A stretch of 43,770 nucleotides of DNA from a virus, in IMG/VR virus record IMGVR_UViG_3300045988_064273; one strand, written 5' to 3'. The notes beneath the pieces were generated by a model that was not told the origin of the DNA, did no database searches, and worked only from the letters and a program-made list of their open reading frames with translations. The position numbers were made by a program, and so were the translations under genes. Shown here piece after piece: positions 1-42,554 of the stretch. The number at the start of each line of letters is the position of its first letter. The stretch's first letter is position 1.

Positions 1-52
1 ATCAACGCCTTTTTGTTCTGCCGCAAAGGTTCGAATCCCTTACGGCGTGCCA
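1..52 (+). tRNA. 3' portion of a tRNA(-like) gene (T arm, acceptor 3' strand, G discriminator, CCA); the 5' part lies outside the window
   Basis: AAAGG-TTCGAAT-CCCTT T arm, then ACGGCGT, G and CCA ending at nt 52. The anticodon arm could not be folded from nt 1-24, so isotype is unknown. Confidence 0.55.
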
Positions 53-55
53 AAA
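1..55. repeat. attL core: left copy of the perfect 55-bp direct repeat
   Basis: Identical to nt 43716-43770 (ATCAACGCCTTTTTGTTCTGCCGCAAAGGTTCGAATCCCTTACGGCGTGCCAAAA). Confidence 0.9.
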
Positions 56-57
56 AG

Positions 58-100
58 AGAAAATCCCGAAGTCGTTGAAACTTCGGGATTTTCTTTATTT
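58..100. terminator. Bidirectional rho-independent terminator just inside attL
   Basis: Perfect 14-bp stem AGAAAATCCCGAAG/CTTCGGGATTTTCT with a 9-nt loop. T-rich tracts follow it on both strands. Confidence 0.75.
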
Positions 101-187
101 ATCAATGGTTTGCGGCGTTTTTGCGCCGTATATTTTCCAACGTAATCATACAAAAATTAGCGTAGCAATGTACGTTTTAACTTGCAA

Positions 188-209
188 TTTTACGTCAAAA
201 TTTACGACA
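188..209 (+). promoter_or_regulatory. Putative integrase arm-type site (left arm), TTTACG-N6-TTTACG
   Basis: TTTTACGTCAAAATTTACGACA matches 43673-43694 at 20 of 22 positions in the same orientation. Confidence 0.45.
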
Positions 210-215
210 ACTTTG

Positions 216-602
216 TTATGCGTTTTTGAGGATGCTTATAGCTTTCTTGATTGCCATGTGTTCGCTCTCGCCGCCTGCGGTTTTGAGCATATCCTCGAGC
301 TTTGCGATAGCGTGCTCGTTTTCGTCGGCGCGGCTGTAATGTCTGCGGCTATAGTCATCATCCCGGCTATAGCGCCCCATGCTGTCGCGCTTGTAGCTGT
401 TGCCTCGCATAAAGCCTTCTGCATCCCATTCGCTTCTACGGCTGTAGCCCTCGCCCATGCAGATCTTGTCGATGTTCTTGATGCTGTGCACAAGCTTGTC
501 GATAATGTCAAGCGCGCCGACGTTTAATTCGCCCTGCTCTGCAATGCTGTCAAGTTCCTCACAAAGCATGTCGCGCAGTCTTTCAAGTGTTTTCATACTC
601 AT
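216..602 (-). CDS. Hypothetical protein (128 aa) with helical ends and an R/S/D/Y-rich centre
   Basis: ORF with SD GAAGGGA upstream. Last gene before attL. No family recognised. Confidence 0.6.
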   Translation of the reverse strand: MSMKTLERLRDMLCEELDSIAEQGELNVGALDIIDKLVHSIKNIDKICMGEGYSRRSEWDAEGFMRGNSYKRDSMGRYSRDDDYSRRHYSRADENEHAIAKLEDMLKTAGGESEHMAIKKAISILKNA

Positions 603-615
603 GTTATTGCTCCCT

Positions 616-1038
616 TCACGCTATTCTGTCAACTATAAGATTTGCATTTGCAAAGTTGACTGCCTGGCCGCTCGTGTTCTCTGCTGCTACAGTGAGGCAG
701 CAGTCGCGCGGCACGTTTACATTTGCGGCAACGTAGATATTAAAATAATTCTCAACCGCAGCCGGTGTTATCGTTGCCGTCGCACTGGTAAGCGGTTCGC
801 CGTTTATCGCTAAAGCGGCCGTGATAGCCTCCACGGCGCCGCCGGTAGGTATGGCTATATTCGCGCCAAAGGCAACACGATAACGCGCTCTGCACTGGTT
901 TGTGAGGCCTCTGAGCGTAACAATGCCTGCACCCTCGCGGTGCACTATGCTGCAATTACCGGCTACCGCCGTCTCGGTAAGAGGTACGTTCTGCCCGGCT
1001 GCTACGGTCACGATGTTTGAGTTCGTAAATTCAGCCAT
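616..1038 (-). CDS. Hypothetical beta-rich protein (140 aa), possibly a C1q/TNF-like (BclA C-terminal-domain-like) jelly roll
   Basis: ORF. The alternating hydrophobic pattern and C-terminal NANLIVDRIA resemble BclA-CTD-type domains. Resemblance is by eye only. Confidence 0.55.
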   Translation of the reverse strand: MAEFTNSNIVTVAAGQNVPLTETAVAGNCSIVHREGAGIVTLRGLTNQCRARYRVAFGANIAIPTGGAVEAITAALAINGEPLTSATATITPAAVENYFNIYVAANVNVPRDCCLTVAAENTSGQAVNFANANLIVDRIA

Positions 1039-1246
1039 CGTTTTCGCTCTCCTTTCCGGCGATACCGAAAGGTATCGACAGCGACATGGTTTTTATCATG
1101 TTTTCAAAGTAATCGCCTTTTTCTGTTTCGTTGACAGTCTTGATGATATACGCGAAAGTGTTAAGTTCGCTTACATCGAGCGTGTCAAGATCTACATCCA
1201 TAAGGTAGTCAATGAATTTTTCTTTGAGTTCTTTGCAAGTTGCCAT
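1031..1246 (-). CDS. Hypothetical acidic protein (71 aa)
   Basis: ORF overlapping the next gene by 8 nt (coupled). Confidence 0.5.
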   Translation of the reverse strand: MATCKELKEKFIDYLMDVDLDTLDVSELNTFAYIIKTVNETEKGDYFENMIKTMSLSIPFGIAGKESENDG

Positions 1247-1363
1247 ATAATCAGTCCTTTCATAAGAAATGCGGTGAGGCTATGCGCCCCACCGCTTATC
1301 GTTAGTATCGGTAAAGGCCGAACATTTTCGTAAAGTCACGAAAAAGCTAAACTATGAGATTTG

Positions 1364-2086
1364 TTATGCGCAGCTACCGCATGCCCCGCAGGGTGCAGAC
1401 GAAGCCCAAGGGTTACAAGTGATGTAAGCCGGAGTCGGGCAAGGCCGCAGCTGAGATACGAGGTAATTGTTCTGCGCAGCCTGCGAAGCCGCAAGCTTGA
1501 GGTTCTGGTTCTCGGTCTGCAAATCCTGCATCTTGCTGTTGACGAGGAAATCGAGAATTGCCTTGCTGTTGCTGTTTGCGTTGTCGATAATGTCGCGTGT
1601 TGCGTTCTGCACAGTGTTGCGAGTATCGCAAGCCTGCGTTGCCATATCATAACGCACCTGAGCAATTGCCGCGCGGTTCTCGCAGCAGCACTCCTGTGCC
1701 TGCATCTGCATTGCGTTCAGCTGCTGCATAAGTGCGGCCTGCTGATTGCAGCGCGACAGCTCGGAAGAGTAGAAGCCGTTTGTGACCGCCTGAGTGACAC
1801 CGGCGAAGCCGTTAAGCATTCCCGTGTTCATGGCATAGAAGCCGTCACACAGGCCGTTGTTAACGTTGTCAAGCTTTCGCTCGATGTTTGCAAAGTCGGA
1901 AGTCAGAACGTATCCGTCCATCACTCCGCCATTGTTACCGCCCCAGCCGTTGCCGCCCCAGCCGAAAAGCACGATGAAAAAGAGGATTATCCACCATCCA
2001 TCACCGCCAAAACCGCCGAAGCCGCCGTTTGCTGAGGTTGGTGCAACCGGCATGGTCATTACCGGCGCATCAGAAGAAATCGCCAT
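1364..2086 (-). CDS. Membrane-anchored protein (240 aa) with a Gly/Trp-rich TM N-terminus, Q/N-rich coiled coil and Cys-rich C-terminus
   Basis: GGFGGFGGDGWWIILFFIVLFGWGGNGWGG, then ECCCENR and CGACGSCA. SD AAAGGAAA upstream. Confidence 0.65.
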   Translation of the reverse strand: MAISSDAPVMTMPVAPTSANGGFGGFGGDGWWIILFFIVLFGWGGNGWGGNNGGVMDGYVLTSDFANIERKLDNVNNGLCDGFYAMNTGMLNGFAGVTQAVTNGFYSSELSRCNQQAALMQQLNAMQMQAQECCCENRAAIAQVRYDMATQACDTRNTVQNATRDIIDNANSNSKAILDFLVNSKMQDLQTENQNLKLAASQAAQNNYLVSQLRPCPTPAYITCNPWASSAPCGACGSCA

Positions 2087-2141
2087 TGTTTAGTTTTCCT
2101 TTCGATATGTATTTACAAATACCCGGCCGGATAAAATGTAC

Positions 2142-2348
2142 CTACTTCATAAGCGCCTGGAACTGTTGCGCAAAGCTCTGCGCCTGGTTGAGCTGCTGTT
2201 GTGTTATCTTTCCGCTTTGAAGCATTTTTTGCACTTCCTGTTGTGGGTCTCCCTGAAACGTGCTTTTAAACTGCTGAAAGCGCTGCACGAGCTGCTGAAA
2301 CTGCGGATTAACTCCGCCGCCGAGAGCTTCAAACAAAGGATTACTCAT
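2142..2348 (-). CDS. Hypothetical Gln-rich protein (68 aa)
   Basis: ORF overlapping the upstream gene by 8 nt. Confidence 0.55.
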   Translation of the reverse strand: MSNPLFEALGGGVNPQFQQLVQRFQQFKSTFQGDPQQEVQKMLQSGKITQQQLNQAQSFAQQFQALMK

Positions 2349-2712
2349 TGCTTACCTCCTTCGGCATAAGCGCCGCAACTTGCTTTACAAGCGTCTCATA
2401 CTCCGCCCGGGTCACATAATCCGCAGTCGGCTGAGCCGGTGCGCTCTGCGCTCGTTCCGTGTAGTCAAGAATGCGCATAGTCGGCATGCCTGCCGCGTCA
2501 ACGGATTTAAGATAGATCGTTTGCCGTTCGCTGTCCCAAAGCGGAACAGTGTTTCCGGCAGCTACTAAATACGCTTTACCTGCCGCCTCTCCCTGCACCC
2601 AGATCATGCCCTGCTGTGCAGGCTGCTGCTGTGCTCGCATCTGCGCGAGATTGTCCATCATAGGCGGCTGATAATATGATTGCCCATACATGTTGCCGTA
2701 ACCGTAAGCCAT
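2341..2712 (-). CDS. Hypothetical protein (123 aa) with a Tyr/Gln-rich N-terminus
   Basis: ORF lying 2 nt after the upstream stop. Confidence 0.6.
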   Translation of the reverse strand: MAYGYGNMYGQSYYQPPMMDNLAQMRAQQQPAQQGMIWVQGEAAGKAYLVAAGNTVPLWDSERQTIYLKSVDAAGMPTMRILDYTERAQSAPAQPTADYVTRAEYETLVKQVAALMPKEVSNE

Positions 2713-2714
2713 GA

Positions 2715-3092
2715 TTAATCCTCTCTTTCAAAGTAATAAACCGGCACTTCCTCGCCGCTGTCCCACGTGTCGTAGTAATCGCCGTTTACGACGGCCACGA
2801 CGTGCCCGGACAGTGCAAGGACATAAACGCCGTGCGGATGTTCATCGGCGAAGGCGGCGACTGTGTAGCACTCCGGGCAAGCATCCGGCAGTATGCGCTG
2901 TCTAAAGCCGTTGGCTTTGAGGTAACTTCCCCAGACGCTGTTTCCCGAGGGCATGTCGTGCGCTCTCAGGCCTTCAACGCACAAAGCGAGATAGGTCTTT
3001 TCCCAGTCCGTTCCCATTGCTTTTGCAATTGCTCTCACTGCGCAATCGCCGACGCGCTTAGCACCCGGATTAGGATTAAAAAACACGAACAT
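2715..3092 (-). CDS. Putative small Cys/His peptidase-like protein (125 aa)
   Basis: NPNPGAKRVGDCAVRAI ... SGHVVAVVNGDYYDTWD gives a papain-like Cys..His arrangement by eye. SD AAGGAGG upstream. Confidence 0.5.
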   Translation of the reverse strand: MFVFFNPNPGAKRVGDCAVRAIAKAMGTDWEKTYLALCVEGLRAHDMPSGNSVWGSYLKANGFRQRILPDACPECYTVAAFADEHPHGVYVLALSGHVVAVVNGDYYDTWDSGEEVPVYYFERED

Positions 3093-3177
3093 GTCGCCGC
3101 CTCCTTGTACCTAAAGCTTAATGCTTTTTCGTTTTTCAAGGGGGAAACTAATGTCCGTGTTATGGGGAAAATGGGCG

Positions 3178-3205
3178 TAAAAAAAGAGGAGGTCTTGCCT
3201 CCTCT
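3178..3205 (-). terminator. Strong rho-independent terminator after the lysis cassette
   Basis: - strand AGAGGAGG-caaga-CCTCCTCT followed by TTTTTTT. The stem overlaps the stop codon of 3205-3453. Confidence 0.8.
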
Positions 3206-3453
3206 CAGCTTTTGAAAAACCGCTCGTAATTATACTCAAGCTTTGTTCGCGCCGTTGTTATTCGTTTACCGACGGTTTTTCGGTCAAGCCCTATTTCTTC
3301 TGCTATGTCTATCTGCGGAATTTGCTGAATGAAATACAAATCCGCTATCCTGCTGCCCTCGCGCCCGAGGTTGGAACTGTATATAAGCTCATCCCACTTC
3401 TCGCGCGGCAGCATTGCCATGTCCGGCCTGAGCCGTAATCGCGCCTGTGTCAT
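3205..3453 (-). CDS. Small sigma-70 region-4-like HTH protein (82 aa)
   Basis: ADLYFIQQIPQIDIAEEIGLDRKTVGKRITTAR. ATGA start/stop overlap with the holin gene. Confidence 0.6.
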   Translation of the reverse strand: MTQARLRLRPDMAMLPREKWDELIYSSNLGREGSRIADLYFIQQIPQIDIAEEIGLDRKTVGKRITTARTKLEYNYERFFKS

Positions 3454-3713
3454 TTATCACACTTCGGCTTATCGTACTCCATAGCCTGCTTGCTGTCGCC
3501 CACGCCGGCGGTCGTCGGGTCTGTGACTACGCCGAGAATGGTAAGCACCGCGAACAGCGCGTTTACAACGGCCAGCAGCTTGTCGCCCAGCGCGTCAAGC
3601 TTCAAGTCGATGCCGAACACCGCCGCTACCACCTGAATAAGCAGCAGCAGCGCCGGGATTAGCGCAAGCCAAAAGGTTTTGTTTTTAATGCGTACAGTCC
3701 AATTGATTTTCAT
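3450..3713 (-). CDS. Holin, phi-LC3 / Phage_holin_1-like
   Basis: MKINWTVRIKNKTFW..., two TM segments, then ...VVTDPTTAGVGDSKQA. Confidence 0.88.
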   Translation of the reverse strand: MKINWTVRIKNKTFWLALIPALLLLIQVVAAVFGIDLKLDALGDKLLAVVNALFAVLTILGVVTDPTTAGVGDSKQAMEYDKPKCDK

Positions 3714-3727
3714 AAATGTGCCTCCTG

Positions 3728-3961
3728 TTAATGATGATGATTTTTCATGTCGTCTTCAAGATCGCTTATGCGATGGTTGATTACCTTAATCTGTTCCTCT
3801 ACCACAGGCATACGCTTTGCAAACTTGTTGTGTTCCCTGACCTCGCGCGTAAGCTCGTCCACGCGCTCTTCCATGACCGCTTGCGATTTGTTATTGTTGA
3901 TAATAACGCCGATAAGCGTCAGCACGCCGGTTATGATAGCTACGACTACACTTTCAACCAT
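3728..3961 (-). CDS. Lysis-cassette membrane protein (77 aa) with an N-terminal TM and coiled coil
   Basis: VVVAIITGVLTLIGVII followed by a charged helix. Sits between the endolysin and holin. Confidence 0.65.
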   Translation of the reverse strand: MVESVVVAIITGVLTLIGVIINNNKSQAVMEERVDELTREVREHNKFAKRMPVVEEQIKVINHRISDLEDDMKNHHH

Positions 3962-4659
3962 TATTTTTTAATTATCCTCTCGCAAAAAATTATCGTCCTG
4001 AGCATATCCTCCGTCAGGTCGATAACGCCGTCGCCCTTGCCCTGAATAACGCCGTCGGCCATAAGCTTCTTCACTGTGTCGCGGTAAAACCCTTCGGGAA
4101 CGTCGTTGACCGTTTTCCATCTGACCATTTCTTCATCCTCGCTTTCTGCTGTATATTTCGGTCTGCCAAAGCCGTAGACCGTGCTGCCGAGATGCCTGGT
4201 AACGCGCTGCACGGAGTTGCCGTGGTTGCCCTCTATGGTAACGAACGTGTTGCCGTTTACGCTTTCGACAATGCCCGTGTGGCAGGGCAGCCCATCGCGG
4301 CTGTCGCGCTGAAAATACTGATCGCCTACCTGCGGCTTGGTGAAAAGCCTCGCCTGTCCTGCGTAATACTTCGCCCAGCTCACGCAGCTTGCGCCGTATG
4401 GCCCGGTAAGGCACAGAATATCCTTTGCCTCGCTACCTGCAATGCGCCAGAAGCACCACGCTACAAAGCTTGTGCACCATTCATAGCCGTTCTTCGGCGT
4501 GTTCCAGAACTTCGCCTTGTCGAGCTCGGCCTGAAACATCGTGAAGTTGCCTCGCCCGGCGTTATCCTCAAAGCTGTATAAGTCCTTGTCCGACGCCTTT
4601 TCCTTATAGCCTATGTACTTTGCAGCTAACGTGAGCACCTGTTTCGGGGTAATGTTCAT
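3961..4659 (-). CDS. Endolysin with an N-terminal CHAP domain and a C-terminal wall-binding-like domain
   Basis: GYEWCTSFVAWCF ... CHTGIVESV ... TIEGNHG. Start moved to MNITPKQ (SD GGGAGGA); the ORF extends to 4674. Confidence 0.85.
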   Translation of the reverse strand: MNITPKQVLTLAAKYIGYKEKASDKDLYSFEDNAGRGNFTMFQAELDKAKFWNTPKNGYEWCTSFVAWCFWRIAGSEAKDILCLTGPYGASCVSWAKYYAGQARLFTKPQVGDQYFQRDSRDGLPCHTGIVESVNGNTFVTIEGNHGNSVQRVTRHLGSTVYGFGRPKYTAESEDEEMVRWKTVNDVPEGFYRDTVKKLMADGVIQGKGDGVIDLTEDMLRTIIFCERIIKK

Positions 4660-5099
4660 CCTGCATCCTCCCACGCGCTCGGCAGCGCCGACGCATCGTG
4701 TACAACATTATCCTGCAAGCACCTGTGTACCTTGCCGGAAGCGTCCTTGTAGCATTCGCCGGTCATGTACATGCCGCTCGTTCCGAGAGGGTCTACCCAT
4801 GCTTTGGCCTTTGCAGGGTCTTTCGTGTGGCACAGCCCCCACAGAGCGCGAAGCGTTGACGGCCTGCCCTGATAATTCGCGGCGTTGTACGGCTGTATAA
4901 GCGTCCACACCTGACCCTCGTCGGCCACCGGCGTACCGGCAGGACATGCGCTGTAATCCTTCTGCGCGTTGAAGTCCGGCACTTTGCTTTCCTCCGCGAT
5001 TATCGCCGTGCCGTCCATCGTGCTTGCGCGTCCGCGCAGATTGAGCGCATCGTCCGCGCCCTTTTCCTTCATTTTGGTCATAGCCTCTGTCTTCGTCAT
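4656..5099 (-). CDS. Hypothetical protein in the tail-fibre region (147 aa)
   Basis: ORF with 4-nt start/stop overlaps on both sides. Confidence 0.6.
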   Translation of the reverse strand: MTKTEAMTKMKEKGADDALNLRGRASTMDGTAIIAEESKVPDFNAQKDYSACPAGTPVADEGQVWTLIQPYNAANYQGRPSTLRALWGLCHTKDPAKAKAWVDPLGTSGMYMTGECYKDASGKVHRCLQDNVVHDASALPSAWEDAG

Positions 5100-6329: not shown

Positions 6330-8072
6330 TTAGCCGTACACCCAGCATATCTGCCCGTTTACAGTCGGCGTCGATTCCGCACTTGCAAAATACTGATTGC
6401 GCAGTGCAGGCGTTCCGACCGCTACACCGTCGGTCGCGTACTTCGCCTTGTTGACGGTTTGACTTGCTATGTTCGATGTGGTGATAGCCGTGGATTTGTC
6501 CTGCTTTGTGTCTTGCAGGTTTTTGTCGGCTGATATCCACGTATACCCCGTAGCCGCCGCCGCTGTGCAGTGATAAACAAGCTTTGCCGCCGTGTCGATG
6601 TAGGTTTGGCCGACTACACCGACGGTCGATGTCGTTGGCGGCGCGGTGCCGATGATGGGCTGAGGTAGATCGTCAAGCGCCGCCTTTACGCCTCCCGAAG
6701 TTATCGGGTTTGTGCTGCCTGCCGTGGGTGCTGTGTCGAATGTCAAAGCGTTCTGCTTTCCGTTCCACGCCGTCCTCTCCGCGGCGGTAATGTGCTTAGC
6801 TGTGTTTTGCGCGTGGGTATTCAGATTGTCCTGTACGGTCTCTGCCGCGCCCTGCGCGTCCGCTCCGACCATTGCGGCGGTGTAGTCGCCCGTCTGGGGC
6901 GCAACAGCTCCGGAGCGCCCGTTGAAGCTTGAAACACCGCCTCCGGCAACTCCCTGTGCGGCCATAGCCCAATACTTGGCGTTGTTCGTGTCCTCGCCGG
7001 TTCGCGTGCCTGTGCCGCCGACTGCCCAGCTCTCGGACAGCTTGCTGCTCGCCTGTGCGCTTTGTGCACTCGCTCCGGCGCTCTGTGCGCTCCCCGCCGC
7101 CGCGCTCTTGGCGCTCTCTGCGTCTGTCTTGGCGCTCTGTGCGGAAGTATTCGCGGCCTCGGCATCTGCTTTCGCGGTCTGCGCCGAGGTGTTTGCAGTC
7201 TCGGCCTTGCTCTGCGCCGTCTGTGCCGCTGCTTTTGCCGACTCTGCGGCGGATTTTGCCGACTGCGCGGAAGCATTCGCGCTCTCGGCGCTTGCCCCTG
7301 CCGTGACCGCCGCTGCTTTCGCGCTCTCTGCGGCTGCCTTTGCGCTCTGTGCCGCCTGAGCCGCGGTCTGAGCCGCCGTGGCCTTTTCTGTGGCCGTCTG
7401 AACGCTCTGTGCGCTTGCAGTCTCGCTGGCCGCTGCCGATGCAGCCGACTCTGCCGCCGCTGATGCCGAGCCGGAAGCCGATGCTGCCGCGCTTTCTGCT
7501 GCGGTCTGTGCGCTCTCCGCTTTGCCTTGGGCAGTCTCGGCCTTGCTCTGCGCGGTTTCCGCTTTGCCCTGTGCGGTCTCGGCTGCTGCCTGTGCCGTCT
7601 CCGCTGCTGCCTGCGCATCCTCGGCTTTGCCCTGTGCGGTTTCTGCCGCTGTCTGCGCGTCCTTTGCCGCCTGTGCCGACTGTGCCGCCGCCGACTGCAC
7701 CTGCGCCCAGATGGGCAGTGTGCCGGTCGATACGTCCTCATATCCCTCATAGCCCTTGCGTATCTTGCCGACCGTCGCCCACACCGTAGGTATCGCGACC
7801 GTGTTGGCGTTGTCTGCGCCGTACACGCCGACCATAAGTATCTCGTCGCTTTTCGCAAGACATTCCTGCGGAATGGAGCAGACGTTGTTTTCCCAATACG
7901 AATCGAGCACGACCTTTGTAACGTCGCCTGCCGTGAATATCGCGGTTCTGCTTATTCCCGAATGCCAATCGGCTGAAAACTCGAATTTTATCTTTGCATT
8001 TATCATGCCGCTGGTCAAGGTTTCGTTTTCCGTCACCGTCGCCAGCGCTTTGCCGATCATGATTGTTGTCAA
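6330..8072 (-). CDS. Tail fibre protein with a ~210-aa Ala-rich heptad (AETAQGK-type) shaft
   Basis: Long low-complexity helix plus SFNGRSGAV..GDYTA, a common fibre motif. Start is TTG 8072 (SD AGGAGG, 8-nt spacer) or ATG 8060; the ORF extends to 8150. Confidence 0.7.
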   Translation of the reverse strand: MTTIMIGKALATVTENETLTSGMINAKIKFEFSADWHSGISRTAIFTAGDVTKVVLDSYWENNVCSIPQECLAKSDEILMVGVYGADNANTVAIPTVWATVGKIRKGYEGYEDVSTGTLPIWAQVQSAAAQSAQAAKDAQTAAETAQGKAEDAQAAAETAQAAAETAQGKAETAQSKAETAQGKAESAQTAAESAAASASGSASAAAESAASAAASETASAQSVQTATEKATAAQTAAQAAQSAKAAAESAKAAAVTAGASAESANASAQSAKSAAESAKAAAQTAQSKAETANTSAQTAKADAEAANTSAQSAKTDAESAKSAAAGSAQSAGASAQSAQASSKLSESWAVGGTGTRTGEDTNNAKYWAMAAQGVAGGGVSSFNGRSGAVAPQTGDYTAAMVGADAQGAAETVQDNLNTHAQNTAKHITAAERTAWNGKQNALTFDTAPTAGSTNPITSGGVKAALDDLPQPIIGTAPPTTSTVGVVGQTYIDTAAKLVYHCTAAAATGYTWISADKNLQDTKQDKSTAITTSNIASQTVNKAKYATDGVAVGTPALRNQYFASAESTPTVNGQICWVYG

Positions 8073-8107
8073 AAGGCTTTTCCTCCTTTTTCGCTTCTTG
8101 ATTTCAG

Positions 8108-8145
8108 CATAACAAAAGAAGGCAGGGCTTATTAAGCCCCACCTT
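8108..8145 (-). terminator. Rho-independent terminator after the giant gene
   Basis: - strand AAGGTGGGGCTT-aat-AAGCCCTGCCTT (12 bp including 2 G-U pairs) followed by CTTTTGTTAT. Confidence 0.65.
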
Positions 8146-8163
8146 CGCATGTTTTTTAACTTT
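8133..8163 (-). repeat. Late-junction element, copy a (AAAGTTAAAAAA-CATGCG-AAGGTGGGGCTTA)
   Basis: Shares an A-tract, 6 nt and AAGGTGGGGCT(G/T)A with 23019-23050 and 27232-27262. Confidence 0.6.
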
Positions 8164-11100
8164 CGTCGTTCTCTTTGCGCTTATAATATTCCTGCGCATG
8201 GTCGATTATCCCCTGCGCCGGGTTTGAACTCTTATAGGCCGCCATTTGCCAATCGTAAACCTTGTCGTACTCGTTGTTGACCTCGTACTTGGCGATTTGG
8301 TCTGCGTATTTGTATACATAACTGAGCATGTATGCCTTTTCGGCATCGGATGCGCGAGAATATGCGCTGCTGTTTATTATCTTTTTTGCCAGATCATAAG
8401 AGGTTCGTCCCCTGACCGTTGCATACTTCACATATTCCTCAGCCGTCAAAAATTCGCCGTTGATTTTTGTTTTTACAGCCGCGCGACCGGGATATACGCC
8501 GGTTTCGCCCAGATCATAAAGCCGTTTGAGCTCGCCGTCTATCTCGGTGCTGCGCTCCTTCTTGACGTATGCCGGATTTACAAAGTTGTTGAGCACCCTC
8601 TCAAACAGGTTGCCGGTTTCCTCTGTACGTCCCCATGCGTCAATGTACGGTATCTGGCTGAAATCATAAAACGGTATCTTGTTGGCGATCTTGCCCCACA
8701 TATATTGCAGCTCTGAGCCGACATTGCTGTTGCGGTCAATATACGTTGTTTCTCGCTGATTTTCTCCAAACGCTCTTTCGGCCTGCCCGAACAGCGTCGG
8801 GAAATACTGTGATATGTAGTTTGTCGCCATGCTCGTTACGATTTTGAACGAACCCTGTCCTTGCTTTATGTAGGCAAGGTTATCAAACAGATCGTTGACG
8901 CTTTGAAGCATTGACATTTCAAACATCGGCGTGCTGAGGCTCATGACGGAACTCATAAGGTTCTGAACAAAGCCGTTATCCTCGCTTTTGCCGCTGAGCG
9001 AATTATACAGTTCAACGCCCACGAATAGCGGCATGCTTTCCGGCGCGAGCCAGTCAAGCGTGATGCTTAGACCGCCTATGTTAAGCGCATAGTTTTGACT
9101 TCCGCCCAGCTCGTCAAACTTGTTTTGTTTATCGTCGTCTCCGGGACTGCCGCTGAATAATCCCCACGATGCCAGAAGAATACCCAATCCAACAAGCGCA
9201 GTGCCAGTCAGCCCGGCTGAAACGTCGTCGATAAACTGTGCCGGTGACATTCCGTTTTCTACATCGCCGTTTACATACGCCTTGACTTTCTTCGTGTCAA
9301 CGGCGAGCGACTTTATAAGCCCTACGGGCGAGTATTCCACCGCTCTCACGAGTATGTTTGCCGGTGTTTTTTTGAACGGCAAAACACCCTCTATCAGCGC
9401 GGAAGCGATCTTGTTATCGACCTTGCCGAGCCTGCTGACCATTGCCGAAAATCTGTTTGTGTCGCGGTAAGTCGCTTTCTGGGCTTCCTTTACCGCAACG
9501 GTCTGAGCTTTTATTATCGTGCTTTCGGGTACCTTGCCGGTGTTGAGCTGTTCGGCGGTTATGCCGTTTGCCTTGTACCATTTCGCGAGCGCGTTGGCGT
9601 ATGCAGGTTTACAAAACCATGCGTCCTCCGCGTCAAGCAGGTTTGAATTGCCCTTGCGTGCCGCCTCAAGGATTTTGGTTTTGTAAATCGTCCTTTTCTT
9701 GTCTATGCCCTGGAATGTATCGACATACTTGCCGCCCGAGAGTATAGTCTCCTGCATCGCTTCATAATCGGTCATTGCATACTTTATAAGTGCCACGTCA
9801 TTTGCGTTATTGCGGTTGAGCATGGCTTTGCTGCGCTCTATGCCTCCGTTCACTTTGCTGTCGGCGACATTTTCAAGGCCGTATGCTATGGTGTTTTTGA
9901 CTGCCCTGACCGGCACGAAAAATGCGTTGCCCACGATGTTTCTGACATGTGTACGAGGATTGCCCAGCATTGCGAGGTATCTGAAATTGTTGAGCTTTTC
10001 ATACCATGTCGCGTCTATCTGCTGTGCTACGCTCTGCTCGATTTTCGCCCATGCGGTCTTTATGCCATCCTCGTCGCCGCTTCTGAGTGCTTTACCGTAC
10101 TCGTCATACAGCACCTTGTCAACGTGTATATCCGCTTTGTTGTCCTTGTATTTCTCGTTAAGGTCTTCCTCTATAGTCTCAACGGACTTTGCGGCAAGAT
10201 ACAGTTTGCATTCGGGAGAGAGCTTGTTGAGTATGCGCATCGCCTGCAAAGACTGCGCCGTATTCGTCGAGTTTTTCACCATAAGTGAAGCAATATCCAG
10301 CGCGGTTGCATAATCTCCGCTGTTGACGGCGTTATTGTACAGAGCAATACCCATAACGGTATTGTCCTTCGATACCTTACCGGCATTTATCTGTGCCTTG
10401 TAATCGGCAAGCGCCTGTTCCCAGCCGTTAGCCTCTATCGTGATCTCGGCTTTTTTGAGCGCTGCCTCGTCGGAATAGGCTATGTGTGAGAATTTGCCCT
10501 GTGCCGCGTCCTCGCGTAGTGCGTCGGAAAACTCTGCCGGGGTAACGCCGCTGTTTGCGAGTGTGGAAACATGCTTGCTCGTGAGCTTGCCGTTCAGATC
10601 TTCCTTGGGTATCTCCTGCGGCGCTCTGTGCTGCTGCTCGGCAAGGTTTGCTTCCTGCTCTCGGCTTATCGGATGCAGCGCGTTGTTGCCCTTGCCCTGA
10701 GCCTCAGTTACCCAGCGCTCGCCTCTTGTTTCCTCGCCCGTGAACTCTGCCGAAGCCGCGCCCATGCCTTCGGGCAGCGAATTTTCTGCCGTTCTATCCT
10801 TTACCCTCGTAAGGACATTGTCCAAAGCCTTGATATTGACATAATCGCTGAGTTTTCTGTGTTCCTCTGCATACTTTCTGCTAAGCAGGGTAAAACGATT
10901 TCGGGCTGTCGCTATGGCGTTTTTGTCACCGCTGCTCTCTGCCGTCAACACTTCCTGACGCGCCGCGTCGAGCTTTTCGGCAATGCCGCTGACCTTGTCA
11001 TACTGGCGCTTATAGTCCTTTATAAGGCCGCGCTCGTTCTCGTTTGCTGCGTCCTCGTTTGTCGCCTGAGCAAGCATGGTTTCATTCTGCCGCCGCAGCT

Positions 11101-14100
11101 CGGTAATGCTCTCCGGCTCTCGGGAAAAATGCGCATCCGGCACGTCATTTGCGATCTTCATTCGGGCTGCATCGTCTCCGGCTCTGTATTCTTCGACGGC
11201 ATTTATTCCTGCTTCTTTAAGTGCCTTGCGCAGCGTATCCGACGATGTGTCGGGGATAATGACCTTGCGTATCTCGTCGAAGCCGACCACGCGTTCAGGC
11301 TTTGCCTCGAAGATGTTGACCGGCATATTATTAACGTCAAACAGCAGCGCAACTATATCGCTCGCCATTTTATCGGTAAGCGGATAGTTATACTTCTTGA
11401 AAAGCGCTTTCACGTTCGCGGGGCTAACATATTTAAGCTCCGTTGCCTCCATAAACACTTCGCCTATAGAGTCCAATTCCATAAGCTCGTTACTGTAGCC
11501 GCTGTGGGGAACGAGGTTATAAATGTCGTGCATGAGCTCGGAAAGCCTGCTGTCAAGCGCATCGGATATTTGGCTTGCTTCCTCCGCTGTCAGGTGCTTC
11601 AGGCGTCCTTCAAGCTTGTGCATATCTTCGACGCTCTTGAAGCGCTCGGCAGTACCTGCACGCAGACTTTTAACGCCGTGGAAGCCCATAACGTTTCGTG
11701 AGTTTCCGTCGCCCTGCGAAGCCATTGCCTTTACTATGCCGTCAAGTGTATTCGGATAATGCGTAGCCTTGAAGCTTCGTCTATTTCCGCTTGAAGTGTA
11801 ATAATCTTTGTTGTTATAAAAACCGCTGTCCTTTACTGCGTCGCCGTACAGGTCATTGAGCCACTTAATATATTCGCCGCTGTCAACGGCTTTTCTTATA
11901 GCAATGTTTGTCGCGTCAATATCGACTTCGGTTTTTCGGGTCTCAGCACCATCCTTGAGATATTTACGCGCATTGGTTGCTTCCTTGATAAGCTCTGCCG
12001 GTTTCATTGCATCAACTACGGATTTTGCCGTTTTCGCATCAATTCCGTCTTTGGTGTAATACTGCTCGAACGCCGCTTTAAGCGCATCTCCGTGCTTTGC
12101 AAACCATGCCTTTCGCGCAGCGAATGGAGCTTCATTATGTTTTGCAGCCATGTCGTTGAGAACATCCGCGCCGAGCGTGTTTATCAGCGCATCATATACC
12201 TCGATCTGATTATCCGTAAGCCGCGTTATCGTTTCGGTTTTCACCGATTCAACAGGCGTTCTGCCGGTGTCAGCAAGGTATATCTGCATCATCCGCGTGT
12301 CATCGGCAAATTTATCTATTAGCCCCTCCACGCCGCCGTATTTCGTGAGTGTGTCATCAAGGTAATTGGCAGACTCATATAACGGACTCACAAAATCATG
12401 ACCATGTTTTTTCTCAAGCTCGTAATATTTGCGTCGTATTCTCTGAGCCGCCTTTTCGTTTGCCTCGTATTCCATGCGCGGGAAAAGCGGAGTCCATGCA
12501 TCTGCTGAGTAAACGGTGTTGCGCCTGTCAAACTTCGGGTCAACTGTTTCCTTGCCGAAAACGACGGTGATATTGCCGAAATTCGTGTGCGGTATATCGC
12601 TTTTTGTTATTGCGATACTCGGCATCGGAAAACCGCCGAGTTTGAGCGTTTTCAGAAGCTTTGTCTCGTCAAGATTGTGCAGCGCGATAAGATTTTTCTT
12701 CTGCTCTATCGGCGCTTCCATGGAAAATTTCTTGACAGCGGCATCAGCAAATGATACACTACGGATGAGACCAAACTTGGTTCCCCCGAACGGCGTAGAG
12801 CGCCCTAAGGCATTGAACCATGCTTTGGTTTCTTTTTTATTCTCTCCGAGGTAAAGGATATTGCTGTCGTTTAAAAGTTTATCTAAATTGTGAGAGCGTG
12901 AGCCCACACTTCTTATTTTGTTAACAAGCGTAATGCTGTTACGCCTCTTTGTAGAATTAACGCGCAATGCAACTACTATAGGGTTACCATTCGCATCAAA
13001 TACCTGACCAAAAACCATAACTGTATTGTCATATGATTCTGATATTGCAATAGGGTGCTGCAAAATCTCAGGTATTTGTTTAATAACAGATTTCGTGATT
13101 TCGCCTTTTTCAAGAAGCTGTTTTGCCGCCTTGCTTTGGTCGAACCAAATATCTGTATTTGGTATTCCTACTTTCAACAGCGGGTCAGAAACTCCGCCGA
13201 CTCTGAATGCACCGCCATGGTCTTTGCCGTCCCACTGGTCTATCTGTCTGGCAAAATACTTATCTTCTGCTTGCCGCGAGAACATAACCCCGCTCTTCGG
13301 CGGTGCTCTGCCTTTGTTCGCAGTCTCGGCGGTGTGCTTGCGGAAGCTCTCCTGTACCTTGCCGTAGTTTGCGCTGTCGTGCTCCGTTCCGGCAAAGATG
13401 TTTATCTTGCCCAGCGCGTCACAGCACATTTCCTCGAACGCCTCGGCCTCGCTTATCGTGTCGCCGTATGCGTGTCTGTAGACCTCAACAGCGCTGTTAA
13501 GCTCTTTCTCCGAGAGGTCTGAAAGCATAGCGCTGCGCAGCTCGTCAAGGCTTATATCGCCCTGTGCGATTGCCGCGTGCCCCATCTCGTGGCGCATTAT
13601 CTGCTCTGCGGATATGTCGGGATGGTCTGAACGCACCATAACGGTTTTGCTCTCGGTATCGACCATGCCTCTGAACTCGCCGCCGCTGTCCTTGATATTG
13701 CCGCCCTCGAAATATGTGACGTTATAGCCGTAGCTTTTTGCAAGCTCACGGCCTTTTTTCATGCTCTCGGTGTCCTCGCCGGAGTAGTAGACGTTTTCCT
13801 GCTCTACGCCGTTATAGACTACTTTTTGCTCAGTTTTGCCTTGAGCTGCGCTATAACCGCTTTGTCTGCCGCTATCTGTTCCGGCGTAAGCTTCGACTGT
13901 GCCTCTTTCCACTGAGGGTATTTGTCCTTCGGTATTCTGACCGTTAAGCCGTTGGCCGCTGTCGCGTAGACGTACTCCATTATTGTTTACCTCCTGTGTG
14001 TTTATCTGGTTGTTTACCTGTGTGCTTACATTATCACCCTGCGCCGCCGCATTGTCAACCGCCGCCTGAGTTGTAGATGCACCCATGTTATAGGCTATCT

Positions 14101-15994
14101 CCGCCTGTGCGCGGTTCAGAACGGGCACTTTGGTGAGCGACTCTTTGTTCGCGCCCTGCTGCCCCATCTGATACACAGCATCAAACGCCATTTCAAACGC
14201 CTCGGGAGACTCGACGGGATTTAAATTGTACACTCTGCTCACAAACTCAGGCGTTGCATCTATCTTTGCCGCAACATTGTTTATGCTCTTGCTTACAGCT
14301 TCATTATTTGAAACGTTTGTGTTAACAGGCGCGGACATCTCCGAGCGTTGAGCAACATAATTCCTCAACTCGGATAACTGCTGTTCTCTGTTCAGCGCAG
14401 CATGCGGCAACGCCGGGCTTTCCTTATTGAGTTGTGTTTCCGGCGCCGACTGAACAGCAGTACCCTCATTTACCTGCGCTTTCTCGTTAGCTTGTGCAAG
14501 CCTATAAAGCTCGTTGCCGCTAAGCTGTTTGCCGTTATTTAGTTTTTCGTCGTATTTCCTTGCAAGCTCATAGCTTTTAGTGCCTCGTTCGCTTTCCAGT
14601 CCTTCGTCAACTAACTCTCGCTGAGAATTGCCGTATAATCTTTGCCCGGTTTCTCCGCGCTGCTTTGCTCTGTATGCCGCATTTATGCCGGTTGTAGGGA
14701 GACCGAGCAAAGTCGAAACGACCGCCGCGCCGGTAGCTTCCTCAAGCGCCGCCTTTGGATTGATTATAGAGTTTTCATCGTTTGCGTCATACAGCGGCAC
14801 GTCAGAGTATATACTCTTTAATCCTCTGCCCAAAATGCCCTGTATGATTTCCTCGCTTGCTTCTTCCCCGATGCTCTTAGCGTAGTTGAGAAGCAGACTT
14901 TTGTCGCCCTTATTAACAGCTTTTTTCACCCATTCGGGCAACTTCTGCAAGCCGCCAAGTTCGGAGACGCCGCCAAGTTCAGTAACCGCATTTCCTGCGC
15001 CATTCAGCGCAGCATAAACAAGCGCCTGCAAGTCATCCGCACCGTCTTGTTTAGCCTCGTCATAGCTTGAACCAAATGACGAGCCAAATATAACTTGCGC
15101 ATCCGGGCGCGTCGCAAACTGCTTTATCGCGTTCTGAGCTATAGCTCCGGTCTGGCTGAGTTTTGAGGCAGCCTGCCCAATCCGCGCAGCATTAGCAAGC
15201 GCGGCAGTGTCGACAGCAGTTGCAAGACCGCCGCCCATAAGAGTTGACGCCATCATTGCCGCCGCTTCGGAGGTCGCCGTGCTGTACTTATAAAGGGGGT
15301 TATCTGCATACGCAGCGTCGCGCTTTTGGCGGTATTCTATTTCTTTCTCACCGAGTTTATTAAAGGCTTTGATAGGGTTATCTTTAAAATTCAAGCCTTT
15401 AATTCCTAATGCATTATCCCCTGCAGCCTCTGCTATGCGGTCGCCGCCAAACATATACCAAAGCTCTTGCAAAGGGCCTCCGTCCTCGTCACCGAGGCTG
15501 GTAACAACATCAGCAGTGGAAACCAAGCTTTTGCTGAAATCGGTTAGGCCTACGTCAATGCCTCTGAGTATCTTTTTATACCACTCAATATCGCCTGCCG
15601 ATATCGCGTCGCTGCCTTTGGTGAGCTTTTCACCGCCTCCGGCCTGTTGCAGATATGCGTATCCGGGATTGTTGCGCTTAACTGCATCGCCATCCCACAC
15701 GCTGATATAGCCGTTGCCCTTGCCGGTTTCAATTTTCGAAGCCGCAGCTTTGCCTTTCGTTCCATCGCCGTATACTTTGCTATATACATATCCGGGATTG
15801 TTGCGCAAAAGTGCTTTTGACTTCTGCTCATCATCATAGGTTTTTGCTGCCGCACCGCTTTTTATTCTTGCAATATACTCACTGCGCCAATCTGAATTGG
15901 TGCTCTTGCTTTTTTCGCTGCTTGCATTGTCACCAACCCAGTTTTCATTAGCTTTCAGTTTCGCAATATATTTTTTTATGCTATTTGAAGCCAT
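8156..15994 (-). CDS. Giant multidomain virion protein (2612 aa) with a zincin HEMGH motif, probably a polyvalent ejected/internal protein
   Basis: One uninterrupted ORF. HEMGH is encoded at 13577-13591. TM segment GLTGTALVGLGILLASWGLF lies near nt 9150-9220. NNPGY(V/A)Y occurs twice at the N-terminus. Confidence 0.85.
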   Translation of the reverse strand: MASNSIKKYIAKLKANENWVGDNASSEKSKSTNSDWRSEYIARIKSGAAAKTYDDEQKSKALLRNNPGYVYSKVYGDGTKGKAAASKIETGKGNGYISVWDGDAVKRNNPGYAYLQQAGGGEKLTKGSDAISAGDIEWYKKILRGIDVGLTDFSKSLVSTADVVTSLGDEDGGPLQELWYMFGGDRIAEAAGDNALGIKGLNFKDNPIKAFNKLGEKEIEYRQKRDAAYADNPLYKYSTATSEAAAMMASTLMGGGLATAVDTAALANAARIGQAASKLSQTGAIAQNAIKQFATRPDAQVIFGSSFGSSYDEAKQDGADDLQALVYAALNGAGNAVTELGGVSELGGLQKLPEWVKKAVNKGDKSLLLNYAKSIGEEASEEIIQGILGRGLKSIYSDVPLYDANDENSIINPKAALEEATGAAVVSTLLGLPTTGINAAYRAKQRGETGQRLYGNSQRELVDEGLESERGTKSYELARKYDEKLNNGKQLSGNELYRLAQANEKAQVNEGTAVQSAPETQLNKESPALPHAALNREQQLSELRNYVAQRSEMSAPVNTNVSNNEAVSKSINNVAAKIDATPEFVSRVYNLNPVESPEAFEMAFDAVYQMGQQGANKESLTKVPVLNRAQAEIAYNMGASTTQAAVDNAAAQGDNVSTQVNNQINTQEVNNNGVRLRDSGQRLNGQNTEGQIPSVERGTVEAYAGTDSGRQSGYSAAQGKTEQKVVYNGVEQENVYYSGEDTESMKKGRELAKSYGYNVTYFEGGNIKDSGGEFRGMVDTESKTVMVRSDHPDISAEQIMRHEMGHAAIAQGDISLDELRSAMLSDLSEKELNSAVEVYRHAYGDTISEAEAFEEMCCDALGKINIFAGTEHDSANYGKVQESFRKHTAETANKGRAPPKSGVMFSRQAEDKYFARQIDQWDGKDHGGAFRVGGVSDPLLKVGIPNTDIWFDQSKAAKQLLEKGEITKSVIKQIPEILQHPIAISESYDNTVMVFGQVFDANGNPIVVALRVNSTKRRNSITLVNKIRSVGSRSHNLDKLLNDSNILYLGENKKETKAWFNALGRSTPFGGTKFGLIRSVSFADAAVKKFSMEAPIEQKKNLIALHNLDETKLLKTLKLGGFPMPSIAITKSDIPHTNFGNITVVFGKETVDPKFDRRNTVYSADAWTPLFPRMEYEANEKAAQRIRRKYYELEKKHGHDFVSPLYESANYLDDTLTKYGGVEGLIDKFADDTRMMQIYLADTGRTPVESVKTETITRLTDNQIEVYDALINTLGADVLNDMAAKHNEAPFAARKAWFAKHGDALKAAFEQYYTKDGIDAKTAKSVVDAMKPAELIKEATNARKYLKDGAETRKTEVDIDATNIAIRKAVDSGEYIKWLNDLYGDAVKDSGFYNNKDYYTSSGNRRSFKATHYPNTLDGIVKAMASQGDGNSRNVMGFHGVKSLRAGTAERFKSVEDMHKLEGRLKHLTAEEASQISDALDSRLSELMHDIYNLVPHSGYSNELMELDSIGEVFMEATELKYVSPANVKALFKKYNYPLTDKMASDIVALLFDVNNMPVNIFEAKPERVVGFDEIRKVIIPDTSSDTLRKALKEAGINAVEEYRAGDDAARMKIANDVPDAHFSREPESITELRRQNETMLAQATNEDAANENERGLIKDYKRQYDKVSGIAEKLDAARQEVLTAESSGDKNAIATARNRFTLLSRKYAEEHRKLSDYVNIKALDNVLTRVKDRTAENSLPEGMGAASAEFTGEETRGERWVTEAQGKGNNALHPISREQEANLAEQQHRAPQEIPKEDLNGKLTSKHVSTLANSGVTPAEFSDALREDAAQGKFSHIAYSDEAALKKAEITIEANGWEQALADYKAQINAGKVSKDNTVMGIALYNNAVNSGDYATALDIASLMVKNSTNTAQSLQAMRILNKLSPECKLYLAAKSVETIEEDLNEKYKDNKADIHVDKVLYDEYGKALRSGDEDGIKTAWAKIEQSVAQQIDATWYEKLNNFRYLAMLGNPRTHVRNIVGNAFFVPVRAVKNTIAYGLENVADSKVNGGIERSKAMLNRNNANDVALIKYAMTDYEAMQETILSGGKYVDTFQGIDKKRTIYKTKILEAARKGNSNLLDAEDAWFCKPAYANALAKWYKANGITAEQLNTGKVPESTIIKAQTVAVKEAQKATYRDTNRFSAMVSRLGKVDNKIASALIEGVLPFKKTPANILVRAVEYSPVGLIKSLAVDTKKVKAYVNGDVENGMSPAQFIDDVSAGLTGTALVGLGILLASWGLFSGSPGDDDKQNKFDELGGSQNYALNIGGLSITLDWLAPESMPLFVGVELYNSLSGKSEDNGFVQNLMSSVMSLSTPMFEMSMLQSVNDLFDNLAYIKQGQGSFKIVTSMATNYISQYFPTLFGQAERAFGENQRETTYIDRNSNVGSELQYMWGKIANKIPFYDFSQIPYIDAWGRTEETGNLFERVLNNFVNPAYVKKERSTEIDGELKRLYDLGETGVYPGRAAVKTKINGEFLTAEEYVKYATVRGRTSYDLAKKIINSSAYSRASDAEKAYMLSYVYKYADQIAKYEVNNEYDKVYDWQMAAYKSSNPAQGIIDHAQEYYKRKENDES

Positions 15995-41911: not shown

Positions 41912-42490
41912 ATGCTTAATGTGTCAAAAATGGAGGACATGCAATCTTACTTTGACGAGTACCCTGAGGCACTGCGAAAAGCGAGAGCTTCAAGCAGTCT
42001 TACGCTGGCAGAGCTGGCAAGGATAAGCGGCGTTCCTTATAACAGCATTTGCTCCGTCAACTCCGGCGCTACGAAGCAGCCGCTGCTTTATTACTCTGCG
42101 GCAACCTGTAAAGCACTCGGCTTATCCTTGGACGAGCTGTTCGGTATAACAAACACAGAGGGCAGCGTTACCCAGCTAAAGCGAATAAACGCATTGGAGG
42201 TGAAAGCGGCGTGCTTGGAAAAGGACGTTGAACACCACAAGCGCATGAACGCCGTTTACAGGCCGCTGATCTTCTGCCTTGTCGGTGTATGCGCAATTCT
42301 GCTGTGCGCAATCATCGGATACGTAATGTTTGATATACAGCTTAAAAACATCGGTCTGTTCAAATCCGGCGGCTTAACGGTGCTGGCCGTGTTCCTGGCT
42401 ATCGTGGTGCTTGCTGCAATCGCCCTGATCGTCTTTGCGGTGAAAACCGTAATCCACGATGCCAAAACAGCAAAAAGCCCACAGGACTGA
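41912..42490 (+). CDS. Membrane-anchored XRE-family HTH regulator (about 190 aa, 2 TM)
   Basis: LTLAELARISGVPYNSICSVNSG HTH plus two C-terminal TM helices. Start is uncertain (ATG 41912, GTG 41921 or ATG 41930). Confidence 0.7.
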   Translation: MLNVSKMEDMQSYFDEYPEALRKARASSSLTLAELARISGVPYNSICSVNSGATKQPLLYYSAATCKALGLSLDELFGITNTEGSVTQLKRINALEVKAACLEKDVEHHKRMNAVYRPLIFCLVGVCAILLCAIIGYVMFDIQLKNIGLFKSGGLTVLAVFLAIVVLAAIALIVFAVKTVIHDAKTAKSPQD

Positions 42491-42554
42491 TTCTGTGGGC
42501 ATTATTCGCTATAAAATTATTTTCGGCGAATATCTAAGGGGGTTAAAGCGAATA

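Follow-up and report, generated by a model that had tools for sequence, protein, structure and literature searches.

The virus record IMGVR_UViG_3300045988_064273 (IMG/VR), a stretch of 43,770 nucleotides (nt) that we refer to as the window, is a complete prophage. Between its lysis genes and its attachment site, at positions 216-3092, lies a cassette of seven minus-strand genes, which we number g1 to g7 in the direction of reading. This cassette is a real, insulated and internally structured unit that is widely conserved and mobile among phages of gut Clostridia. Our search of the literature found no description of it, and its composition is unlike that of any described system: an accessory cassette at the junction of lysis genes and attachment site, with an uncatalogued leader RNA. 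A preliminary description of the locus had seen here eight tightly coupled genes for unrecognised proteins, suggested as lysogenic-conversion or defence cargo and possibly as a set remodelling the cell envelope or spore surface.

Organisation and distribution of the cassette

In our list of open reading frames (ORFs) the seven genes encode products of 125, 123, 68, 240, 71, 140 and 128 residues, and an independent gene call on identical public contigs returned the same seven, one fewer than had been described. Nor are the genes uniformly tightly coupled. The genes g1 and g2 are 2 nt apart, g2 and g3 overlap by 8 nt, as do g5 and g6, and g6 and g7 are 13 nt apart. Two spacers are wide. The first, of 55 nt between g3 and g4, contains a conserved palindrome, and the second, of 117 nt between g4 and g5, contains a structured leader with its own terminator-like hairpin. 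The cassette is made up of three translationally coupled blocks, g1-g2-g3, g4 and g5-g6-g7, split by these conserved non-coding elements. The terminators that had been reported on either side are both present. Just upstream of the cassette, an intrinsic terminator at 3184-3206 on the minus strand, with a 9-bp GC-rich stem (5 GC pairs) and a U-run, closes the late/lysis operon; its folding energy is -14.4 kcal/mol (z = -2.7). At the prophage end, between g7 and the tRNA-Arg(ACG) gene that serves as the attachment site, a strong hairpin terminator with a 16-bp stem occupies 58-94 on the minus strand (-23.2 kcal/mol, z = -7.4).

The description of the products as unrecognised held in part: six of the seven match PHROG families, and every one of those families is of unknown function. 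Pfam, NCBIfam and PADLOC scans of the seven proteins gave nothing above threshold, including any spore-coat family in the first two, and PADLOC-DB v2 returned just two chance-level matches (E-values, hereafter E, of 0.018 and 0.004). PDB profile searches with g1, g2, g4, g6 and g7 found nothing significant, and profile searches assigned no cassette gene to a tail-fibre or lysis family. A megablast search of positions 1-5000 against GenBank phages gave no match. The unusual compositions were confirmed for the Cys/His, Tyr/Gln, Gly/Trp, beta-rich and Arg/Ser/Asp/Tyr-rich proteins; of the two products called Gln-rich only g3 is so, and g5 is acidic. By sequence inspection, the six non-membrane products (g1-g3 and g5-g7) have no signal peptide, lipobox or N-terminal hydrophobic leader.

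Using tblastn against GenBank phages together with pattern scans of IMG/VR and GTDB genomes we gathered about 110 loci. The order g1-g2-g3-g4-(g5)-g6-g7 is kept in nearly all of them and is shared by about 100 phage or prophage loci. The pairwise-distance matrices of six families correlate with r = 0.66-0.88, the highest value being that between g4 and g6 (0.88, 78 loci). Synteny and correlated divergence across the 78 loci rule out a random collection of morons. Some loci are without g1, and in others only g4 and g6 were detected; the core is g2-g3-g4-g6-g7, with g1 and g5 as optional members. Beyond close relatives, tblastn with the lysin and holin of the window finds no homologue in most loci, where the integrase gives a weak match or none; this indicates that the cassette is exchanged between phage backbones.

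Among the named hosts of the loci, metagenome-assembled genomes of Oscillospiraceae, Acutalibacteraceae and other Clostridia predominate. We find the cassette behind the lysis genes in Oscillospiraceae phages, Dulem virus 33, the Butyrivibrio phage Ceridwen and an Acutalibacteraceae prophage (L108 in our numbering of loci). In Ceridwen all six core genes come after the endolysin gene, with a predicted terminator before the g1 homologue. Ceridwen has no integrase. It showed only lytic growth in culture and has no excisionase, with a repressor and an antirepressor present (PMC7372960). The L108 prophage has g2-like, g4, g6 and g7-like genes after a holin-like gene. The Clostridium perfringens phage CPD1 carries diverged g2, g3 and g4 and a g7-like protein, with a Cys-rich and beta-rich protein of 125 residues in the position of g6; here the cassette lies about 3.4 kb after the amidase and holin genes.

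More distant is the crAss-like phage cr115_1, which encodes a full-length homologue of g4 (hhalign probability 99.9, E 2.5e-31) annotated as 'spike protein/glycoprotein'. It has the same Gly/Trp-rich segment, the CCC triplet, the motif LSASQQAQ...RPCPVPAY..CNP and the Cys-rich end. The gene order in cr115_1 is holin, a LysB/FtsL-like gene, a DUF7841 protein, the g4 homologue and then structural genes. Two TAG codons lie in frame within the g4 homologue (gp43; L117, 3406-4326), a sign of stop-codon reassignment in cr115_1. The preceding gp42 (L117, 2741-3376; DUF7841, E 2e-42) has an Arg/Gly/Tyr/Asp-rich tail whose likeness to the low-complexity middle of g7 is one of composition alone. The claim of lysogenic-conversion cargo survives in the sense of a separately insulated accessory cassette in the slot between lysis genes and attachment site, and fails in that the cassette is not specific to lysogeny, as Ceridwen and the crAss-like g4 make clear.

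Conserved non-coding elements

The g4-g5 spacer (1247-1363, minus strand) is a structured RNA leader of 117 nt with three hairpins and a minimum free energy of -38.1 kcal/mol (z = -4.6). Hairpin 3 (1271-1295; -21.8 kcal/mol, z = -5.5) is a GC-rich terminator stem with a U-run directly before the ribosome-binding site of g5/g6. Across 29 diverse sequences hairpins 2 and 3 together pair in 96.8% of cells, and nine pairs are altered on both sides; none of 500 shuffles reached the observed values, and slid controls were 35-60% paired. The terminator helix alone is paired in 97% of cells, with five pairs altered on both sides. Frequent G-U pairs in the leader are compatible with the sense strand only. 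Hairpin 1 keeps its position while its stem varies, with 27 distinct sequences among the 56 of 63 unique spacers in which it occurs. It was found by a per-sequence search, RNAalifold having missed it because MAFFT misaligned the variable stem.

About 60 unique loci conserve the leader and show compensatory changes in it; where g5 is missing, the leader (about 113 nt) directly precedes g6. Rfam covariance models run against positions 1-3400, which take in both the leader and the palindrome, gave no sense-strand match at E <= 10. The leader is a new, covariation-supported RNA element that ends in an intrinsic terminator and stands outside Rfam. Inspection by eye found no conserved alternative antiterminator pairing in it.

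The second element is the conserved palindrome of the g3-g4 spacer (2120-2133, minus strand), with halves TATCCGG and CCGGGTA, some 30-45 nt before the start of g4. Variants with a GC core (GTGCGCAC, GTGGCCAC, CCGGCCGG, GCGGCCGC and similar) occur in 54 of 65 unique regions upstream of g4. Their offset from g4 is near-constant in most of the 45 regions listed, the position being the same in L001, L017, L020, L024 and others, and the palindrome stays with g4 despite insertions of 0.7-1 kb between g3 and g4. The flanks vary in a compensating fashion, and an A/T-rich box follows. As an RNA hairpin the palindrome is weak in the window (-5.9 kcal/mol, z = 0.2). Candidates for its function are an operator, a processing site and a weak terminator.

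We also noted independent insertions placed exactly between g3 and g4. They occur in L001 (5046-5597, an annotated endonuclease on the opposite strand), in L003 (4017-4667, CPD1_038, which looks like a homing endonuclease) and in L036, L037 and L057, where g3 and g4 are 0.7-1 kb apart. It may be that the g3-g4 junction is an insertion hotspot.

Cassette products and neighbouring genes

The most conserved cassette gene is g6 (616-1038, minus strand), with a mean pairwise distance of 0.19 over 78 loci. Its family comprises at least 8000 clusters at 90% identity, one large cluster being named Gemmiger formicilis. The AlphaFold2 model of the 140-residue product, built from 134 sequences, is all-beta with a predicted local distance difference test score (pLDDT) of 90.1. 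A Foldseek search with this model gave 131 PDB matches at E <= 0.001, led by the F-BclA C-terminal domain 9h38 (E 4e-7), ExsF 9h3d, ExsFA 7r1m, BxpB 8d02 and BclA 1wck, with template-modelling scores (TM) of 0.70-0.77; EDA, 4-1BBL and C1q domains come next. Phage spike knob and fibre domains are also matched, among them the phi812 central spike and cyanophage short-fibre domains, and BFVD contains nearer relatives, stand-alone phage proteins of 130-145 residues with TM 0.82-0.89 to g6.

On this model g6 is a ten-strand TNF/C1q-type jelly-roll beta sandwich, closest to Bacillus ExsFA/BxpB and the BclA C-terminal domain, and the resemblance to C1q/TNF and BclA proposed from the letters alone is borne out at the level of predicted fold. 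The protein consists of the jelly roll alone, with no signal peptide, no collagen-like GXX stalk and no N-terminal exosporium-targeting motif. Because it has no collagen stalk, we place it nearer to ExsFA/BxpB than to BclA. Against the Pfam family BclA_C (PF18573) g6 falls below the gathering score (15.6 bits vs 38, E 0.015), and a PF18573 scan of five diverse members found any match in just one.

The first gene, g1 (2715-3092, minus strand; phrog_3754), encodes an optional protein of 125 residues with no signal peptide. Its AlphaFold2 model, from 104 sequences, has a pLDDT of 95.1. In the model Cys17 opens a helix (17-26), His97 opens a strand (97-102) and Asp108 closes a strand (105-108), so that the His and Asp sit on adjacent strands; all three residues are invariant in the 104 sequences. 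This is the geometry of clan CA, with a Cys at the N-terminus of a helix packed on the sheet that bears the His and Asp. The top Foldseek matches in the PDB, Josephin-2, Tae4, USP5 and MCF, are all papain-fold hydrolases, and the best of them, Josephin-2, is a weak match (E 0.038, probability 0.90, TM 0.49). The model thereby makes g1 a minimal papain-like Cys-His-Asp protein, at the level of fold only, which agrees with its earlier reading as a Cys/His peptidase-like protein. No sequence match was found in Pfam, NCBIfam or the PDB. One public homologue bears the name 'putative papain-like endopeptidase'.

The g1 family also numbers at least 8000 clusters at 90% identity. Lone homologues occur in the Geobacillus phage GBK2, in Bacillus Tsamsa-like phages, where some are annotated as peptidases, and in Lak megaphages. 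They adjoin early-looking genes: an ocr-like anti-restriction gene in Tsamsa, and RecE/RecT, which they precede, in GBK2. In many relatives an extra small ORF, 'g0' (about 30-50 residues, motif ERLIAAG...), ends at or overlaps the start of g1; we saw it within about 150 nt upstream of g1 in L020, L017, L089, L098, L103, L002, L001 and L096. The window is without it and has only non-coding sequence upstream of g1. A Pfam scan of the g0 peptides, prompted by a guess that they are UBA-like, found nothing.

The 240-residue product of g4 (1364-2086, minus strand; phrog_16490, E 3.5e-46) has an acidic N-tail, one Gly/Trp-rich hydrophobic segment, a Gln/Asn/Ala-rich region that looks like a coiled coil, a CCC triplet, the Pro-rich motif LRPxPxPAY and a Cys-rich C-terminus. 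In the family alignment CCC and the C-terminal Cys residues are invariant. Among 118 representatives CCC is found in 104, and the N-tail has on average 2.6 Asp/Glu vs 0.5 Lys/Arg. The family comprises 1712 clusters at 50% identity (E <= 1e-3). Neither a spanin PHROG nor Pfam gave a match. A match to influenza HA2 in the PDB profile search (E 0.19) was set aside as coiled-coil composition, the residue range being the same in both proteins. In a test of the cassette for a spanin pair we found no partner lipoprotein with a lipobox; g4 itself has the hydrophobic segment and a helix-rich domain.

The remaining products are g2, g3, g5 and g7. The 123-residue g2 (2341-2712, minus strand; phrog_21718, E 1e-26) has an N-terminal low-complexity region rich in Tyr, Gly, Gln and Pro, a small conserved stretch of beta-rich appearance (WVQGE...DYTER) and, at the C-terminus, a conserved motif; its family alignment takes in the diverged copies from the CPD1-like and L108 loci. 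The 68-residue g3 (2142-2348, minus strand; phrog_22984, E 3e-21), present in nearly all loci, is Gln-rich and, by inspection only, helical. The 128-residue g7 (216-602, minus strand; phrog_28802, E 3e-7) follows g6 in nearly all loci and has conserved N- and C-terminal regions on either side of a low-complexity middle rich in Tyr, Ser, Arg and Asp. Neither g2 nor g7 has a PDB or Pfam match, and Pfam scans of their family alignments gave scattered chance matches that we rejected, YppG among them, which looks compositional. The acidic g5 (71 residues; 1031-1246, minus strand) has no family match and occupies a variable slot between the leader and g6. It was detected by tblastn in close relatives only. 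The distance from g4 to g6 is about 113 nt in other loci vs 325 nt here, and in some loci the slot is filled by another ORF of about the same length.

Upstream of the cassette the lysis block contains, on the minus strand, a CHAP endolysin (3961-4674), a small XhlA-type membrane protein (3728-3961) and a Phage_holin_1 holin (3450-3713, E 5e-31). The final gene before the terminator (3205-3453, minus strand) encodes an 82-residue helix-turn-helix protein that resembles region 4 of sigma-70 and no other part of it, with a sub-threshold match to Sigma70_r4_2 (E 0.0036) and one to TIGR02937 (E 1.6e-6, 27.9 bits vs a cut-off of 42.9). Homologues stand upstream of g1 in loci whose lysis genes are unrelated, adjoining the cassette in L001, L095 and L098 and lying 1.1-1.4 kb from g1 in L037 and L111. 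Because of this recurrence the protein, judged by its sequence, may be a regulator of the cassette. Upstream of g1 no convincing sigma-A or sporulation-type promoter was seen by eye, and a promoter scan gave none there.

The integrase is encoded on the plus strand at 42459-43670. The attachment site is the 3' part of the host tRNA-Arg(ACG) gene (1-47, plus strand), the sequence ...GGTTCGAATCCCTTACGGCGTGCCA stopping at about position 47. ARAGORN reports no tRNA at the start of the window because the window edge cuts the gene; in an integrated copy (L119) it finds the full tRNA-Arg(acg) 164 nt past g7 (10987-11063). Public contigs include an integrated form of the prophage flanked by the host genes YmdB and SbcCD, and a circularly permuted form of 43 kb in which g7 abuts the integrase.

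Two long minus-strand genes elsewhere in the window also drew attention. A single ORF of 2612 residues spans 8156-15994. Its counterparts in near-identical phages have MuF_C with PBECR5 or ART-PolyVal domains, which marks it as a polyvalent protein, and their C-terminal domains vary among these otherwise near-identical phages. The 606-residue product of 6330-8150 contains a long Ala/Gln/Ser/Thr-rich repeat (AETAQGKAE...), which accounts for a local GC peak of 0.64 and a strong AT skew; we take the product for a probable fibre or coiled-coil tail protein.

Proposed role and relation to known systems

We tentatively suggest that g4 and g6 form a membrane-anchored complex which, with low-complexity adaptors, acts in the interest of the phage at the cell envelope in late infection, around the time of lysis; this is the reading we prefer, and it is a possibility rather than a probability. 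The non-coding elements would tune the relative expression of the three blocks, and the products would come together at the cytoplasmic membrane, within the infected or lysogenic cell. Since the partners of g4 have no export signals, assembly would be expected on the cytoplasmic side with g4 as the anchor, which may also provide a Gln/Asn-rich stalk and Cys clusters. The g6 protein is probably a trimeric TNF-like module. ExsF, its closest solved relative, is represented in the PDB by a complex (9h3d) with a short peptide of an anchoring partner, and this complex suggests g6 as a docking module for the tail of g4, g2 or g7. The proteins g2, g3 and g7 could act as low-complexity adaptors or matrix proteins, and g1, where present, as a papain-like enzyme that processes or cross-links a cassette component or a host protein. 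Candidate roles would be the control of lysis or release, or a block to superinfection, with spore remodelling unlikely.

Three observations lead us to favour a role for the phage around lysis over host conversion: the cassette recurs close to lysis genes in four distant phage groups, it is carried by a phage for which only lytic growth has been observed, and a g4 homologue occurs in a crAss-like phage. Several points weigh against the proposal. The assembly model is drawn from predicted folds and from composition, and the terminator insulation and the position between lysis genes and attachment site would fit prophage-expressed cargo equally well. The hydrophobic segment of g4 is short and Gly-rich, and the charge bias on either side of it is too weak to fix the topology of the protein. 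In cr115_1, hhalign comparison of gp42 with g7 and of gp44 with g6 found no homology, so that only g4 is shared. Finally, the lone g1 homologues among early-looking genes hint at a host-takeover role unrelated to the other members.

A bolder form of the proposal, which we hold to be doubtful, is that the phage builds an intracellular proteinaceous assembly of a kind not described before, on an exosporium-like principle. Here g4 would be the anchor, g6 a docking trimer, g2, g3 and g7 the matrix and g1 a maturation enzyme, and the leader would act as an attenuator RNA setting the subunit ratio. Such an assembly would be shared by very many phages of gut Clostridia, with its anchor also in a crAss-like phage.

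Of the alternatives to a role around lysis, the one that survives best is prophage-expressed exclusion or defence, in which the cassette would have its own promoter in the lysogen and g4 and its partners would block other phages; we consider it unlikely. The cassette occupies the classic moron slot with terminators on both sides, includes a membrane protein and, as defence cargo often does, moves between unrelated temperate phages. Against this stand its presence in Ceridwen, lytic in culture, the g4 homologue within a late gene block of the crAss-like phage, and a PADLOC search whose best match (E 0.004) was not significant, so that the exclusion system named in the preliminary description gained no positive support. 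Defence hotspots are typically variable in content, and a synteny stable over about 100 loci would be unusual for them.

Less likely again is a set of genes for host takeover or anti-defence, with early expression or a timing of their own, in which g1, for example, might cleave a host defence or ubiquitin-like conjugate while the low-complexity proteins sequester host factors. The company kept by the lone g1 homologues in Tsamsa and GBK2, their presence in Lak megaphages and the deubiquitinase Josephin-2 as the best structural match of g1 would all suit this, as would the fact that the cassette borders the early/lysogeny region in circular phage maps. However, the Josephin match is weak, the core g2, g3, g4, g6 and g7 persists without g1 in CPD1 and L108, and neither g4 nor g6 has a link to a known anti-defence fold.

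It is improbable that the products are virion accessories, with g6 as a TNF-like knob or decoration and g4 as an ejected protein that inserts into membranes. Phage spike knobs and fibre tips do use the TNF-like fold, as in the phi812 and cyanophage domains matched by g6, and the crAss-like g4 homologue adjoins structural genes. Yet g6 is without an attachment domain, and the cassette sits behind a terminator, outside the structural operon. No single phage backbone goes with it either: it is exchanged among carriers without any tblastn homologue of the lysin, the holin or a neighbouring 147-residue gene of the window, and the similar stand-alone proteins in BFVD come from contigs labelled Sipho-, Podo- and Myoviridae.

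The least probable reading, that Cys-rich, Tyr/Gln-rich and BclA/ExsFA-like proteins are added to the coat or exosporium of host spores, draws on the exosporium proteins ExsFA, BxpB, F-BclA and the BclA C-terminal domain as the closest solved structures to g6, on products without signal peptides like mother-cell coat proteins, on a composition that recalls the coat proteins CotG, CotC and GerQ with a papain-like enzyme that recalls Tgl or YabG, and on carriage by phages of C. perfringens, a spore former, but is disfavoured by a host range that includes Gemmiger formicilis, Butyrivibrio fibrisolvens and the host of the crAss-like phage, none of them known to form spores, by the lack of any spore-coat family above threshold and by TNF-like knobs being common in phage fibres and spikes too.

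Whichever function proves right, the cassette is among the more abundant unexplained gene sets of human-gut phages, and g4 at least crosses the divide between Firmicutes and Bacteroidota phages. That so many phages keep it beside their lysis genes makes it likely that its function bears on the way in which gut phages kill their hosts, leave them or protect them. Two folds predicted with confidence, a new regulatory RNA and cultured carriers (Butyrivibrio phage Ceridwen and Clostridium perfringens phages) offer handles on the question. Even an ordinary answer, such as a superinfection-exclusion set, would annotate thousands of 'hypothetical' proteins.

Several parts of the cassette can be compared with known systems. 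The g6 jelly roll is like ExsFA/BxpB and the BclA C-terminal domain and, as in ExsFA/BxpB, stands alone at about 140 residues with no signal peptide. Unlike them it is phage-encoded, including in phages of hosts not known to sporulate, and just 11-16% identical, and no ExsY/CotY-type partner was detected. With the clan CA hydrolases (Josephin deubiquitinases, the Tae4 amidase and MCF/C58 proteases) g1 shares a minimal papain-like topology and the invariant Cys, His and Asp, whereas it belongs to no Pfam or NCBIfam family, matches them weakly in structure and, at 125 residues, is shorter than typical members.

The short N-tail, single hydrophobic segment, long helix-rich Cys-containing domain and Pro-rich end of g4 resemble the i-spanins (Rz, P2 LysB) and the class III holin T of T4, as does its place near holin genes, including in the crAss-like phage with its LysB/FtsL-like neighbour. 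It differs in having no sequence or profile match to those families and no lipoprotein partner, and the window already has a Phage_holin_1 holin besides g4. The hosts of Firmicutes phages have no outer membrane. The RNA leader is like attenuating leaders (HK022 put-like or riboswitch-like) in its two conserved, covariation-supported hairpins followed by a terminator and U-run at the ribosome-binding site, and unlike them in matching no Rfam family and showing no conserved antiterminator by eye.

As a whole the cassette is closest to the moron or lysogenic-conversion cassettes of temperate Firmicutes phages, which lie in the same slot between lysin and attachment site, are insulated by terminators and are exchanged between phages. 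In contrast to these, it does not amount to a single secreted toxin: five to seven genes keep together as a stable unit, RNA elements lie within it and its products are without signal peptides. It is found also in a phage for which lytic growth alone has been seen and, in part, in a crAss-like phage.

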